The translations under genes and the position numbers were made by a program. Below the pieces are notes generated by a model. It worked only from the letters and a program-made list of their open reading frames with translations, ran no database searches and had not been told where the DNA came from. A DNA stretch of 63,954 nucleotides, counting the filler, from an uncultured Acidimicrobiia bacterium (GTDB taxonomy: Bacteria > Actinomycetota > Acidimicrobiia > Spongiisociales > JAOTWH01), in assembly GCA_964347285.1 (NCBI GenBank). It is 3 parts of 3 records of this genome, joined end to end, with 100 filler letters (N's around TTAATTAATTAA, not from the genome) between each part and the next. Parts side by side here need not be neighbours in the genome. Positions count along the whole stretch, not along the records: positions 59,877 to 63,954 come from CAYFYE010000147.1; 2 more parts are not named here. The stretch is one strand, 5' to 3'. Below, piece by piece: positions 2,931-63,954 of this stretch (position 1 is its first letter; each line of letters starts with the position of its first letter).

Positions 2931-3030
2931 NNNNNNNNNNNNNNNNNNNNNNNNNNNNNNNNNNNNNNNNNNNNNNNNNNNNNNNNNNNNNNNNNNNNNN
3001 NNNNNNNNNNNNNNNNNNNNNNNNNNNNNN
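2931..3030. other. Scaffold gap (100 N) with a 55-nt duplicated overlap
   Basis: 2876-2930 is identical to 3031-3085. Confidence 0.9.
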
Positions 3031-29960: not shown

Positions 29961-30060
29961 NNNNNNNNNNNNNNNNNNNNNNNNNNNNNNNNNNNNNNNN
30001 NNNNTTAATTAATTAANNNNNNNNNNNNNNNNNNNNNNNNNNNNNNNNNNNNNNNNNNNN
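29961..30060. other. Artificial contig linker (N-TTAATTAATTAA-N)
   Basis: All-frame stop spacer at 30005-30016 within N run. Confidence 0.95.
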
Positions 30061-59776: not shown

Positions 59777-59876
59777 NNNNNNNNNNNNNNNNNNNNNNNN
59801 NNNNNNNNNNNNNNNNNNNNTTAATTAATTAANNNNNNNNNNNNNNNNNNNNNNNNNNNNNNNNNNNNNNNNNNNN
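59777..59876. other. Artificial contig linker
   Basis: N run with TTAATTAATTAA at 59821-59832. Confidence 0.95.
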
Positions 59877-60300
59877 CCATGAACGCCGTGAAGACGACCA
59901 CCGCCACCTTGCGAGAGGCGGCCCGGCGGGCGGGATTGCGGTCGATGTAGGGGAGGACCACCAGCCCGATGATGATCCCGGTGGGAACGAACACTCCGGC
60001 CACCACCGGGTGGAAGTGGGCGAGCAGTTCCTGGAGGCCGATGAAATACCAGGGCGCCTTTTCGGGATTGGGGGTCTCGTTGGGGTTGGCGATCTCTTGC
60101 AGCGGAGCGTCGAAGAAGAGCGAGACGACCAGCACGAGCAGGAGGACGGCGATTGTGGCCACGGCGTGACGGACCAGTAGATGGGGCCACACCATGACCA
60201 GCTGCTGTTCCTCGGGCACCTTGCGCTCGCCGGCGGCCGGTTCGCCGGGTACCACTCCGAGCACCCGCTTTCCCTCGACGAGGCGAGGCTCACTGTCCAT
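59877..60300 (-). CDS. Cytochrome b C-terminal / subunit IV (PetD-like), 3' truncated
   Basis: WPHL, APL...ANP..TPNPEKAPWYFIGLQELL, LPYIDR. Confidence 0.85.
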
Positions 60301-61018
60301 CAGCGCCCCCGCCGTCGAGCATGGCGTCCTTTCGCCACCTCCACAGATGCACCGCCACCAGCACCACCGCCAGGGTGGGCAGCACCGCGACGTGGAGGAC
60401 GTAGAACCGGAGCACGGTGGCGCTCCCGATTTCTGATCCGCCGAGGAGGGTCTGCTGGGTCTGCTCGCCGATGAAGGGAACGAAGGCGGCGATGGAAGTC
60501 CCCACCGTCACCGCCCAGTACGCCAGCTGGTCCCAAGGCAACAGGTAGCCGGTAAACGACAGCAGCAGCGTGAGGAAGAGGAGGACGACCCCGATCACCC
60601 AGTTGAACTCACGGGGCGACTTGTAGGCCCCTCGATAGAAGACCCGGGCCATGTGGGCGGCCACCGCGATCACCATCAGGTGAGCCGCCCAGCGGTGGGT
60701 GTTGCGAATGAACTGCCCGAACCCCACCTCGGTCTGCAAGGTCTGCATGTCGCTATAGGCGGTGGTGGGGGAGGGCACGTAGAAGAACATCAGGTAGATG
60801 CCCGAAACGATCAGCGACACGAAGAGGGTCACCGAGGCCACTCCAAGGAACCAGGAGTAGCGGAAGGTGATCTCCTCGCGGCGAACCTTCACCGGGTAGA
60901 TGTGCAGAAAGAAGTTGGCCCAGTGGGCGGCGGCTCGATCGCGAGCGGTGTCGCGGTCCGGAACGCGAAAGACCGACTTCCAGGCGTTCGACTCACGGAC
61001 GCGATCACCGAGCTTCAT
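60290..61018 (-). CDS. Split cytochrome b (b6-like N-terminal chain)
   Basis: YVPS...AY, RNTHRWAAH...H, REFNWVIG, TGYLLPWDQ.AYWA, RFYVLH-14aa-H. Confidence 0.92.
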   Translation of the reverse strand: MKLGDRVRESNAWKSVFRVPDRDTARDRAAAHWANFFLHIYPVKVRREEITFRYSWFLGVASVTLFVSLIVSGIYLMFFYVPSPTTAYSDMQTLQTEVGFGQFIRNTHRWAAHLMVIAVAAHMARVFYRGAYKSPREFNWVIGVVLLFLTLLLSFTGYLLPWDQLAYWAVTVGTSIAAFVPFIGEQTQQTLLGGSEIGSATVLRFYVLHVAVLPTLAVVLVAVHLWRWRKDAMLDGGGADGQ

Positions 61019-62814
61019 CCGACCGAACCTGCCGTCACCGGCACACCCACCCCCGACCATACGCCCATGACCAGGGCATCGGTCGGGCACCGTTCGATGC
61101 ACAGGGCACACCGGATGCACTTGGTCTCGTCGAGGAGCAGGGCCGTACCCGATTCTCCGCTGCCCAACTCGGCCGCGGGAACCAGCGAGATGAGATCGAG
61201 CGGGCACACGTCGGAGCACAAGCCGCACAACACGCACTTGTCGGTCTCGAGGAGGATGTTGGCGAAGCAGCGGAGACAGCGTTTGGCCTCGCAGCGGGCC
61301 AGCTCCTCGCTGAAACCGATTTCGACCTCGCTGAGGCCGACCCGCCGCTCGCTGGGAAGGGCGGGAATGGGGAGCCGATCGAAGCTGTCGTAGTCGTCGT
61401 CGAAGCGGTGGAATTGGTCCAGGACCACCATCTGGCCGGGGGGCTCGGCCTCGGCGGCTTCGCCGCCGAGGGCGGTGTGGATACGGGCGGCGGCCTGCCT
61501 ACCGTCGGCGATGGCGTCGATGAGATTGCGGGGCCCTTTGGCGGCGTCGCCTCCGGCCCACACGAGGGGCAAGCTGGTGGCGAGGGTGTTGGGGTCGATC
61601 TCGATCGTTTGGCGGCTCGAAATGGCCGGTCCGTTGGGGCCCAGGGCCTCGACATCGACGGCCTGCCCGATGGCCAGAATGACGGTGTCGGCCCCGATCG
61701 TCTGGTGGTCGTCGGTGTCGAAGACGGGGGCAAAGCGTCCCTCCTCGTCGAACACCGACACGACCCCGATCGTGTCGACCCCGGTGGCGGTGCCGTTGTC
61801 CACGGTGATCGAGGCCGGTCCGCGCCGGTGCACGAATCTGATGCCCTCGATGGCGGCTTCTTCCAGCTCGTACTCGGCGGCCGGCATCTCCTCCTGTGAC
61901 TCCAGGGCGACCACGGTCACCTCCCGGGCTCCGGCCCGTACGGCGGACCGGGCGGCGTCTACGGCCTCGGTGATGCTCGACATCTCATCGGCTTCCTCGT
62001 AGCGCTCGGCCAACTCCCGGCCCTCGTAGGCGGCGGCCCGCAGTGCGGTCCGGGCCGCGTCCATGGCCACATTGCCGCCCCCGATCACCACGACCCGCTC
62101 CCCGACCTCGACCTGGAATCCCAGGTTGATGTTGAGAAGGAACTCGATGGCGCGAAACACGCCGTCGGCTTCGTGGCCTTCGATGTCGAGTCCCCTCCCC
62201 AGGGAGGCTCCGATGGCCAGGAAGATCGCATCGTGGCGGTCGCGTAGTTCGTCGAGGGTCACGTCCCTTCCCAGCGCGGTCTCCACCCGAACGTCGACGC
62301 CCATGTCCACGATGGCCTGGATCTCGGAGCGGAGGAGGCTGCGGTCGAGACGGTACTCCGGTATGCCGAGCAGCATCATGCCTCCTAGCTCCCGGGTCGC
62401 CTCGTACACCGTGACCCGGTATCCCATGAGGCGCAGATCGTGGGCGGCGGCCAGCCCGGCCGGCCCCCCTCCGACCACCCCGACGCTGGCGAGGCGCTCG
62501 ACGGGAGGAGGCGCCCCCACCTCGTGCCATCGGCTGTCGGGACCCGCCTCGGCGCCGTACTGCTCGGTCACGAAACGCTTCAGGGCCCGTATGGCAATCG
62601 GCTTGTCGACGGCTCCCCGGCGGCAGGCATCCTCACACGGGGCGGCGCACACCCGGCCGCACACGGAGGCAAACGGATTGGGGAGGCGGGCGGTCAGATA
62701 GGCGGTGAGGTCGTCGCCGTCGGCGATGGCGGCCACATACATTCCGGCGTTGGTGTGAACCGGGCACGCCGCCAGGCAGGGAATGTTGCGGTCGTAGTAG
62801 TGCAGCTCGTCCAT
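61015..62814 (-). CDS. GltD/NfnB-like NAD(P)H:flavin Fe-S oxidoreductase with C-terminal 2[4Fe-4S] ferredoxin domain
   Basis: PC..ACP, CGRVC..PCE..C, GGGPAG, GIPEYRL, GGGNVAMD, EAKRCLRC, CVLCGLC...CP, CIRCALC...CP. Confidence 0.88.
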   Translation of the reverse strand: MDELHYYDRNIPCLAACPVHTNAGMYVAAIADGDDLTAYLTARLPNPFASVCGRVCAAPCEDACRRGAVDKPIAIRALKRFVTEQYGAEAGPDSRWHEVGAPPPVERLASVGVVGGGPAGLAAAHDLRLMGYRVTVYEATRELGGMMLLGIPEYRLDRSLLRSEIQAIVDMGVDVRVETALGRDVTLDELRDRHDAIFLAIGASLGRGLDIEGHEADGVFRAIEFLLNINLGFQVEVGERVVVIGGGNVAMDAARTALRAAAYEGRELAERYEEADEMSSITEAVDAARSAVRAGAREVTVVALESQEEMPAAEYELEEAAIEGIRFVHRRGPASITVDNGTATGVDTIGVVSVFDEEGRFAPVFDTDDHQTIGADTVILAIGQAVDVEALGPNGPAISSRQTIEIDPNTLATSLPLVWAGGDAAKGPRNLIDAIADGRQAAARIHTALGGEAAEAEPPGQMVVLDQFHRFDDDYDSFDRLPIPALPSERRVGLSEVEIGFSEELARCEAKRCLRCFANILLETDKCVLCGLCSDVCPLDLISLVPAAELGSGESGTALLLDETKCIRCALCIERCPTDALVMGVWSGVGVPVTAGSVG

Positions 62815-62922
62815 CAACAGCGCTGTTCGCCTGCACGCTACTCGGTGATGAGCCGATCCCGGCCGCTGCCGGCAAATACTGGTGCGACGGGTGCGCCAAC
62901 AATAGGGTCGGACGATCGCCGC

Positions 62923-63369
62923 TCAGCCGGCCTCCTCGAGGGCTTCCTGCAACGCCACCCACGGCAGGTCGGCGCATTTGATCCGCACCGGGAACTTGCG
63001 CACGCCCTGGAGTGCCTCCAGGTCGCCCAGGGTGGACCCGGGGCGGGACTCGTCGACGCCACTGTCACCCTCCTCGATCGTCATCATCGCCTTGAACCGA
63101 TGGGTGAGGTCGTTGATCTGCCCCAGGCTCTTGCCGATGATCGCCTCCGTCATCATCGATGCCGAGGCCTGGCTGATCGAGCAACCGGTGCCGGAGAAGG
63201 CAGCGTCGGCTACCCCCTCGGCATCCAAGCGGAGCGTGAGCGTGATCTCATCACCGCACAGGGGGTTCTGTCCCTCGGCCCGGGCGTCGGGGTCGGACAG
63301 CTCGCCGCGGTGGCGCGGGTTGCGGTAGTGGTCGAGGATGACCTCCCGGTACAGATCCTCAACCGACAC
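62923..63369 (-). CDS. sufU: SUF system Fe-S assembly protein SufU
   Basis: LYREVILDHYRNPR, NPLCGD, GCSISQAS, RIKCA.L.W. Confidence 0.94.
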   Translation of the reverse strand: MSVEDLYREVILDHYRNPRHRGELSDPDARAEGQNPLCGDEITLTLRLDAEGVADAAFSGTGCSISQASASMMTEAIIGKSLGQINDLTHRFKAMMTIEEGDSGVDESRPGSTLGDLEALQGVRKFPVRIKCADLPWVALQEALEEAG

Positions 63370-63954
63370 CGAAGACGCTCCGGGCCCGCTCCAGCGCCGA
63401 CACCAGGCGGTCGGCATCCTCGAGCGAGTTGTAAACGTAGAAGGAGGCCCGGGCGGTGGCGGCCACCCCCAGGATGCGCATGAGCGGCTTGGCGCAGTGG
63501 TGTCCGGCCCGCACCGCAACTCCTTGCTCGTCCAAGATCGTCGCCAGGTCGTGGGGGTGGATGTCGGCGAGGGTGAAGCTGATGGTTCCGCCGCGCACCG
63601 CCGGGTCGGCTGGGCCGTAGATCCTCAGCTCGGGAATGGCCCCCAGCAGCTCGAGGGCGTAGCTGGTGATCTCGATCTCGTGGCGGCGGACCTCTTCCAT
63701 CCCGATCTCGGCGAGGTAGTCGACCGCGGCCCCGAAGCCGATGGCTTCGGCGATCGGCGGCGTGCCCGCTTCGAACTTGTGGGGCACCGGGGCCCACTTC
63801 GACTCATGGAGGTGGACATCGCTGATCATCTCCCCGCCGCCCTCGGCGGGCTCCATCTCCTCGAGGAGCTCGGCCCGACCCCACAGCACGCCGATGCCGG
63901 TCGGCCCCAGCATCTTGTGGGCGCCGAAGGCGAGGAAATCGGCCCCCAGCTCCT
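63359..63954 (-). CDS. sufS: Cysteine desulfurase SufS (5' outside window)
   Basis: HKMLGPTGIG, FEAGTP, HPHD, RAGHHCA.P, RASFYVYN. Confidence 0.95.
   Translation of the reverse strand, partial: ELGADFLAFGAHKMLGPTGIGVLWGRAELLEEMEPAEGGGEMISDVHLHESKWAPVPHKFEAGTPPIAEAIGFGAAVDYLAEIGMEEVRRHEIEITSYALELLGAIPELRIYGPADPAVRGGTISFTLADIHPHDLATILDEQGVAVRAGHHCAKPLMRILGVAATARASFYVYNSLEDADRLVSALERARSVFGVG

Follow-up and report, generated by a model that had tools for sequence, protein, structure and literature searches.

The stretch of DNA analysed here (the window) comprises 63,954 nucleotides (nt) from the genome of an uncultured Acidimicrobiia bacterium (GenBank assembly GCA_964347285.1, hereafter G000) and carries at its end the first three genes of a five-gene operon that encodes a flavoprotein, a cytochrome b6, a subunit IV, a Rieske protein and a cytochrome c. 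It is very probable that the products compose, in the wiring outlined below, a Rieske/cytochrome b complex linked to nicotinamide adenine dinucleotide (NAD), a member of the flavoprotein-bearing APWY clade or subfamily G complexes known from anammox bacteria. The explanation that accounts best for the data as a whole, offered tentatively and just short of being called probable, is that of a menaquinol-oxidising complex with a cytoplasmic NAD-linked iron-sulphur (Fe-S) flavoprotein docked on its negative side (n-side).

The three genes are located on contig C147 (4,078 bp, window 59877-63954), the last of the three assembly contigs joined in the window by N/TTAATTAATTAA linkers, and all genes of interest occupy its minus strand in the order sufS, with its 3' part present and its 5' end cut off, sufU, a 108-nt spacer, flavoprotein, cytochrome b and subunit IV (Table 1). 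Flavoprotein and cytochrome b genes share an ATGA overlap (stop TGA 61017-61015, start ATG 61018-61016), and the cytochrome b stop codon (60292-60290) lies 8 nt past the subunit IV ATG (60300), an 11-nt gene overlap; an alternative TTG start of the flavoprotein occurs at 62817, three bases upstream of 62814. A preliminary description of this DNA had reported a GltD/NfnB-like flavoprotein with a ferredoxin domain that overlaps a four-helix cytochrome b, itself overlapping a subunit IV-like gene, in an operon cut by the contig end and with sufU instead of a Rieske gene upstream. The layout and the domain matches agree with it in each of these respects, and on C147 no Rieske gene was found either upstream of the flavoprotein, where sufU and the sufS part stand, or elsewhere. 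Its further statements on the cytochrome (b6-type spacing of the helix-D His pair, absence of the haem ci Cys, APWY in subunit IV, a non-canonical type distinct from QcrCAB) and its choice of the anammox complexes for comparison are likewise borne out by the residues, scores and shared gene content given below.

The Rieske gene was recovered past the contig end. When the final 34 bases of C147 were searched for exact matches, one metagenome contig, L152, was found, which overlaps C147 by 620 nt at 99.84 % identity and adds 625 nt beyond it, as far as a 55-mer that recurs without change at the end of contig C43 of G000. This addition holds the rest of subunit IV (172 amino acids (aa) in full, L152:1331-1849(-)), a 171-aa Rieske gene (L152:834-1349(-); Pfam Rieske 40.7 bits; a 2Fe-2S Rieske motif, CPHLAC...CPCHGSVF, and a Tat-like motif, TRRQLL) and the opening codons of the cytochrome c. 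C43, at whose extreme end the orthologous cytochrome c of G000 begins, carries the protein on as ...FPIYRALEPS..., matching the orthologues, and encodes the rest of a dihaem cytochrome c. The 55-mer (L152 746-800, plus strand) lies in the 5' end of the cytochrome c gene and is apparently common to the C43 end and the start of contig C90 (L153:1-1000), the C43 match being shown directly and the C90 match deduced from the alignment offset. Beyond the 55-mer L152 turns into the C90 path, where a convergent TusA/DsrE-like gene follows and the cytochrome c would be truncated after ~29 codons; the bridge is also spanned by Logan contigs of runs X1 and X2, which may represent the source sample, and these show both the C43 and the C90 continuations, their loose end at the junction reading as the C43 continuation. 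The junction thus appears to be a branch of the assembly graph, caused by strain variation or a chimera and probably by the former, which explains the contig break. Since the Rieske gene follows subunit IV on either path, the complex is not Rieske-less.

The association of these genes is conserved far beyond this genome. Cytochrome b was searched in G000 and 40 relatives of the same order, and an orthologue (70-77 % identical) occurs in 17 of the 41 genomes. Flavoprotein, cytochrome b and subunit IV stand together in 15/15 fetched same-order loci and a 16th, short locus has the flavoprotein end and cytochrome b, so that the flavoprotein-cytochrome b linkage holds in 16/16. According to Pfam, subunit IV is directly followed by a Rieske protein (167-197 aa) and a class-I cytochrome c with one or two haems, and all 15 loci with sequence after cytochrome b have a Rieske match (in two of them an N-terminal piece before the contig end). 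Among 301 evenly drawn Actinomycetota genomes a full-length flavoprotein homologue was found in 16, and the 13 loci fetched outside the order all read flavoprotein-cytochrome b-subunit IV-Rieske-cytochrome c; a 4-nt stop/start overlap is present in half of the Actinomycetota loci (18/36, with heuristic choice of starts). The flavoprotein query also led to 80 named loci and 56 full-length homologues, four of them too short downstream, and in 50 of the 52 informative loci a cytochrome b gene lies on the same strand within 4 kb (<=4 kb), in all 50 together with a Rieske gene. The two exceptions are a Proteobacteria metagenome-assembled genome (MAG) in which flavoprotein paralogues lie in tandem, and a contig from Planctomycetaceae, which stops 1.7 kb past its Rieske gene. 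Linked loci span ~ten phylum-level lineages, with 65-69 % identity in Acidimicrobiia versus 37-47 % in all others (Acidobacteriota, Planctomycetota, Zixibacteria, Binatus, Tectomicrobia, Nitrospiraceae, Hydrogenedentota, Chloroflexi and a MAG labelled Cytophagia). Except in Actinomycetota and the Chloroflexi locus, the genes run flavoprotein-Rieske-cytochrome b-subunit IV with multihaem cytochromes behind them, and fusion of cytochrome b to subunit IV is frequent. The trio recurs in every orthologous locus examined, and the linkage is therefore far beyond chance.

These results bear on two points of the preliminary description, which had named a synteny survey as the test of the linkage and had asked for the downstream contig: the linkage withstood the former (16/16, 13/13 and 50/52 loci), and the latter is supplied by L152 and C43. 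Its alternative of a Rieske-less quinone:NAD(P)H oxidoreductase, composed of flavoprotein, cytochrome b and subunit IV only, has lost its ground. Such an enzyme would fit the lack of a Rieske gene on C147 and the fact that no orthologous Rieske gene was found elsewhere in the 90 %-complete G000 assembly. The bridging contig places one directly after subunit IV, unless the bridge belongs to another strain only, and a Rieske match accompanies the operon in 15/15 same-order, 13/13 phylum and 50/50 linked named loci, which makes this alternative exceedingly improbable.

The flavoprotein consists of an N-terminal Cys-rich domain (Fer4_20, residues 10-86, 61.2 bits), two Rossmann domains (Pyr_redox_2, 111-438, 94.6 bits) and a C-terminal region with an RCxxC pair and a 2x[4Fe-4S] ferredoxin domain (residues ~520-582; Fer4 43.6 bits, Fer4_7 37.4 bits). 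Its closest solved relatives are NfnA/NfnB, GltD and the flavin subunits of formate dehydrogenase-type enzymes, with PDB scores of up to 308 bits. The N-terminal domain and both Rossmann domains are common to NfnB, GltD and NfnA, whereas the RCxxC pair with the 2x[4Fe-4S] domain, an insert of ~35 residues and a Leu-Glu pair in place of Arg-Arg set the protein studied here apart. Assignment to GltD/NfnB proper was rejected, as the protein stays under every NCBIfam cut-off (TIGR01317 185.3 vs 447.7; TIGR01316 294.1 vs 471.75; PRK12771 468.4 vs 516) and its neighbours are sufU and cytochrome b, not GltB or NfnA. In an alignment of 21 flavoprotein sequences 16 Cys are invariant (C13, C17, C52, C56, C60, C64, C513, C516 and those of two CxxCxxCxxxCP motifs), a number that would suffice for four Fe-S clusters, and Arg512, directly before the RCxxC pair, is invariant as well.

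At the nucleotide site after strand beta-2 the protein has ALES (ALE being residues 303-305) where five solved relatives have YRR[S/T], and Leu304-Glu305 is invariant across the flavoprotein family. NfnB and GltD use this Arg pair of the Rossmann fold to bind NADPH by its 2'-phosphate; acidic side chains at this place favour NADH. Because the invariant Leu-Glu stands at the Arg-Arg position of the solved relatives, the sequence hints at NADH as a more likely nucleotide than NADPH. The insert (window 61930-62080, minus strand; residues ~246-295) is situated between the second Rossmann helix and strand beta-2 and repeats the helix motif DAAR..A.R.GA (MDAARTALRAA ... VDAARSAVRAGA); HMMER puts both copies on the same segment of the solved relatives.

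In the cytochrome b the haem ligands are His108/His122, with 13 residues between them, and His209/His224, with the 14 residues of the b6 type; the four are invariant in a 21-sequence alignment, and cytochrome b6 is the best solved match (151.8 bits). The Cys that binds haem ci (haem cn) is absent: Cys35 of spinach b6 (6rqf_I) aligns to Phe57 (WFLGV here vs YCLGG), and by alignment count only 2/47 linked cytochromes b have this Cys. A further His, His39, stands in the N-terminal cytoplasmic stretch (NFFLHIYP) and is invariant in 47/47 and 21/21 aligned sequences and, by motif, in 81/81 linked cytochromes b. Subunit IV has APWY as its quinol oxidation (Qo) motif (residues 82-85, window 60057-60046), as do 64/64 linked subunit IV sequences. 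Cytochrome b and subunit IV are fused in 6/36 Actinomycetota loci (L041, L043, L051, L139-L141), and the same is true of most loci from Planctomycetota and Zixibacteria; a split cytochrome b is therefore not a fixed trait of the family. In a cytochrome b tree of 46 rows (LG+G4, with support from the Shimodaira-Hasegawa-like approximate likelihood ratio test only) the flavoprotein-linked Acidimicrobiales form a supported clade (99), the backbone being weakly resolved.

The cytochrome was also compared with the described families of cytochrome b complexes. It scores 122.5 bits against the model of the actinobacterial QcrCAB type (bc1_QcrB_actin, cut-off 500), which rejects that type. Cytochrome b6f (PetB/PetD/PetC/PetA) has the 14-residue helix-D spacing and the split subunit IV in common with the operon, which differs from it in the lack of Cys35, in APWY instead of PEWY, in its class-I cytochrome c and in the flavoprotein subunit; the scores (186.7 vs 325 bits for cytochrome b6, 20.6 vs 127 for subunit IV) exclude membership. 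In b6f, cytochrome f takes the place that the class-I cytochrome c has here. ExtP and ExtQ of the Geobacter ExtOPQ (Cbc6) complex are the closest NCBIfam models, yet they too fall below their cut-offs (268.2 vs 290 and 42.5 vs 150, respectively), and in the passages of PMC5877670 that describe the ext cluster it has multihaem cytochromes and no flavoprotein.

The nearest described counterparts are the anammox complexes Kuste4569-4574 and Kustd1480-1485. According to the parts of PMC12954380 (2025) devoted to these Kuenenia complexes, their Rieske potentials lie above +300 mV (Kustd1480 +335 mV), all subunits co-migrate, and AlphaFold3 models place four Fe-S clusters in them together with a novel haem b where the two cytochromes b of the dimer meet, its ligand being His43 (Kuste4571) or His62 (Kustd1481) and flavoprotein Arg511/Arg550 lying at the propionates. 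Common to these complexes and the operon are the b6-like four-helix cytochrome b with a subunit IV-like protein, the cytoplasmic flavin adenine dinucleotide (FAD)/NAD(P) protein with about four Fe-S clusters, by position a conserved N-terminal cytochrome b His and a flavoprotein Arg near 511/512, and the Rieske signature: Ser follows CPCHG in 76/81 linked Rieske proteins and Phe, as in Kustd1480, stands two residues on in 70/81. From their numbering and context, His39 and Arg512 are candidate counterparts of anammox His43 and Arg511. The operon differs in its gene order (flavoprotein-cytochrome b-subunit IV-Rieske-cytochrome c), in the missing haem cn Cys (CxGG), in its small dihaem class-I cytochrome c in place of hexa/octahaem proteins and an HAO-like partner, in its probable NADH preference, and in its hosts, apparently aerobic heterotrophs that have complex I and lack RuBisCO. 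Haem cn and multihaem partners characterise the anammox examples rather than the clade at large.

Part of this picture is already in print. The APWY clade as treated in the text of PMC4122944 (Kao and Hunte 2014) includes the split cytochrome b of Ilumatobacter, a member of the Acidimicrobiia, with no characterised example in that text, and short subfamily G cytochromes b co-occur with NAD(P)-binding Fe-S proteins "in many other cases", outside anammox bacteria, in the relevant passage of PMC5600118 (Dibrova et al. 2017). In these two papers the clade is patchy over Planctomycetes, Nitrospirae, Chloroflexi, delta-Proteobacteria and deep Actinobacteria, and it has APWY, split cytochrome b and the co-occurrence with NAD(P)-binding Fe-S proteins in common with the operon. 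The main text of these two papers gives no operon-level account for Acidimicrobiia, and their supplements may list such loci; a literature search, with most subscription journals outside its reach, found no paper on the operon in this class.

G000 and its order also encode other cytochrome b sets. A paralogous cytochrome b, 54-60 % identical, occurs in 31/41 genomes of the order (including the unpublished G011 and G022); its operon is found in G000 on contig C60 (L136:1-4310, cut at its start) and elsewhere at, for instance, L131:6721-12470 and L129:4981-9926. The order cytochrome b-subunit IV-Rieske-cytochrome c is the same, the Rieske protein and cytochrome c being larger in the paralogue, and the paralogous cytochrome b keeps the N-terminal His, APWY and CxGG (haem cn). 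Directly before cytochrome b stands a 2x[4Fe-4S] protein of 151-172 aa that matches flavoprotein residues 520-588; it was seen in 12 of 13 short paralogous loci (two of the 13 from unpublished genomes), the 13th having no upstream sequence. This free-standing protein in the place of the flavoprotein points to the C-terminal domain of the latter as a docking module. In several genomes the paralogous operon lies 8-13 kb from a NuoD gene, and it looks like the housekeeping complex of the order; in the 46-row tree this ferredoxin-type paralogue groups with Acidobacteriota sequences at a support of 80 only. A third set, on contig C7 of G000 (L137:4526-7369), has no Fe-S partner; its cytochrome b (250 aa) lacks both the extra His and CxGG and is followed by a 694-aa protein in which subunit IV is fused to a multihaem cytochrome c, with a Rieske-like match just upstream. 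Thus, within this genome, the extra His accompanies an n-side Fe-S module.

In the proposed complex the oxidation of menaquinol at Qo would be bifurcated. The high-potential electron would pass from the APWY-bearing Qo site to the Rieske protein and the dihaem cytochrome c on the outer side, and the low-potential electron from haem bL to haem bH, possibly to a fifth haem b with the His39 of each cytochrome b copy as its ligands, and onward through the C-terminal 2x[4Fe-4S] domain and the N-terminal clusters to FAD and NAD(H). Delivery of the high-potential electron to cytochrome c and an oxidase would pay for that of the low-potential electron to NAD+, and NADH would be made from quinol-level donors without reverse flow through complex I. 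By analogy with the proposal for anammox bacteria, this direction toward NAD+ is regarded as possible rather than probable. It is preferred to the opposite one because the linked Rieske proteins bear a high-potential signature (Ser in 76/81), because complex I already handles NADH oxidation, and because the design is common to organisms where NAD(P)H supply is a problem. A more specific picture, of a complex III variant with five haems per dimer interface in Actinomycetota that resemble aerobic heterotrophs, in which a haem b clamped between the two His39 passes low-potential electrons from Qo to the four-cluster wire and FAD while menaquinol and oxygen drive NAD+ reduction, the small ferredoxin of the paralogue uses the same docking site, and n-side Fe-S modules are ancestral and interchangeable across the APWY clade, is doubtful at present.

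Several points weigh against bifurcation or against the complex as drawn. RuBisCO occurs in 1/41 genomes of the order (it was not found in G000; no other carbon-fixation or lithotrophy markers were searched) and NuoD in 41/41, mostly at two loci, so that lithoautotrophy offers no evident reason to reduce NAD+ with quinol and an enzyme to oxidise NADH is present anyway; by these counts the carriers resemble heterotrophs that possess complex I and in which the operon is accessory, and this weakens the case for electron flow from quinol to NAD+. The same NuoD count rules out the operon as a replacement of complex I. The n-side chemistry may differ from that of anammox bacteria given the missing haem cn Cys, the equivalence of His39 and Arg512 to the anammox residues rests on numbering and context rather than alignment, the call for NADH leans on the role generally ascribed to the Arg pair, and the join of C147 to C43 crosses a branch with a second path (C90). 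The complex itself is known here from genes and sequence. A structure prediction for two cytochrome b copies with flavoprotein residues 460-599, run from alignments, returned a score of 0.00 and hence no answer, neither for nor against binding.

The heterotrophic appearance of the carriers, which are not Calvin-Benson-Bassham autotrophs by the RuBisCO count, speaks for the opposite direction, in which electrons from NADH would enter via FAD and the Fe-S chain, reach the n-side haems and reduce quinone on the n-side; the complex would then be an NADH:menaquinone/cytochrome c oxidoreductase, with an NDH-2-like entry to a Q-cycle enzyme. For this flow, which runs thermodynamically downhill, ordinary haem potentials would suffice, the Leu-Glu pair hints at NADH, the catabolic carrier, and the paralogue, which keeps the haem cn Cys, also has an n-side ferredoxin-like subunit, so that electron entry on this side may be clade-wide. 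It would be, on the other hand, a redundant non-pumping route in genomes that all carry NuoD, mostly twice, and a waste of energy as the authors argue in the pertinent part of PMC12954380, and the operon is accessory (17/41 in the order, 16/301 in the phylum sample); NADH input is judged rather unlikely, and bifurcation toward NAD+ is preferred to it. Improbable, in turn, is confurcation, in which a high-potential donor, via cytochrome c and the Rieske protein, and NADH would jointly reduce menaquinone at Qo; this is the reverse direction that Kao and Hunte suggest for the APWY clade. The motif is invariant (64/64) and is tied to complexes proposed to run in reverse in the corresponding text of PMC4122944, but the near-universal, housekeeping-like paralogue close to the nuo genes also has APWY, which is then no mark of reversal here, and no high-potential lithotrophic donor system was seen beside the operon.

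A rival of another kind holds that the flavoprotein is a soluble enzyme, co-transcribed with the cytochrome genes and not a subunit. Its GltD/NfnB relatives are usually soluble, and the case for a subunit is made here from genes. The linkage has nevertheless held across ~ten phylum-level lineages despite changes in gene order, the flavoprotein and cytochrome b genes overlap at their stop and start codons, the invariant His39 and Arg512/RCxxC have no role in the solved relatives, and co-migration is described in PMC12954380, for Kuenenia alone. A soluble, separate flavoprotein is accordingly hardly to be expected, and the bifurcating complex with a docked flavoprotein is retained as the favoured, if tentative, explanation.

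The gene that precedes the flavoprotein varies among relatives. Often it codes for a monohaem cytochrome c of 281-332 aa with a membrane anchor; one locus has an EB_dh-like protein there, and others have a membrane open reading frame (ORF) of 70-79 aa which resembles the C-terminal helices of the membrane-anchored cytochrome c (L034:12209-13054, L041:12124-12969, L043:6917-7915, L035:6535-7479, L046:3439-3651, L047:126-365). The nearest relative of this cytochrome c in G000 is located on contig C2 (L138:1925-5767) and adjoins COX2/COX1; in its C-terminal helices it is similar to a portion of a NarI-like (Nitrate_red_gam) ORF. A sufU gene beside the operon was not found in the 16 same-order loci searched, G000 alone having it. 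Stretches of N occupy 2931-3030, 29961-30060 and 59777-59876 of the window, the last two of which separate contigs C18, C19 and C147; neighbourhood across the linkers is not genomic.

Table 1. Features of the operon and its surroundings in the window.
Feature	Position	Strand	Basis or remark
Artificial N linker at the C19|C147 junction	59777..59876	.	Not biology
Subunit IV-like gene, first 141 of 172 codons, cut by contig end	59877..60300	-	Pfam Cytochrom_B_C 34.6 bits
Four-helix b6-type cytochrome b, 242 aa	60290..61018	-	Pfam Cytochrome_B 155.7 bits
His39 codon of cytochrome b, candidate axial ligand for an extra dimer-interface haem b	60902..60904	-	Invariance
Predicted NAD(H)-binding FAD/Fe-S flavoprotein subunit, 599 aa	61015..62814	-	Pfam and NCBIfam matches, PDB relatives
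Intergenic spacer between sufU and flavoprotein	62815..62922	-	Sequence read; likely operon promoter/start region in this genome
sufU-like gene, start uncertain	62923..63381	-	NifU_N 96.7 bits; context only, outside the complex

The complex described here is neither Rieske-less nor the sole Fe-S-decorated cytochrome b complex of its genome, and the invariant His39, the Leu-Glu in place of Arg-Arg and the paralogous operon with a small ferredoxin in the place of the flavoprotein are new details. Anammox bacteria, for which reduction of NAD(P)+ by bifurcation at Qo was proposed and has been an open question ever since, are difficult to culture and to manipulate. The same design is a conserved five-gene operon in aerobic-type Actinomycetota and recurs in the other phylum-level lineages listed above; its invariant His and Arg fit the haem proposed from the 2025 models and thus offer simpler systems and concrete residues to test. 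If the proposal is true, the long-debated bifurcation from quinol to NAD(P)H would become testable outside anammox bacteria, as cultured Acidimicrobiia may carry the operon.

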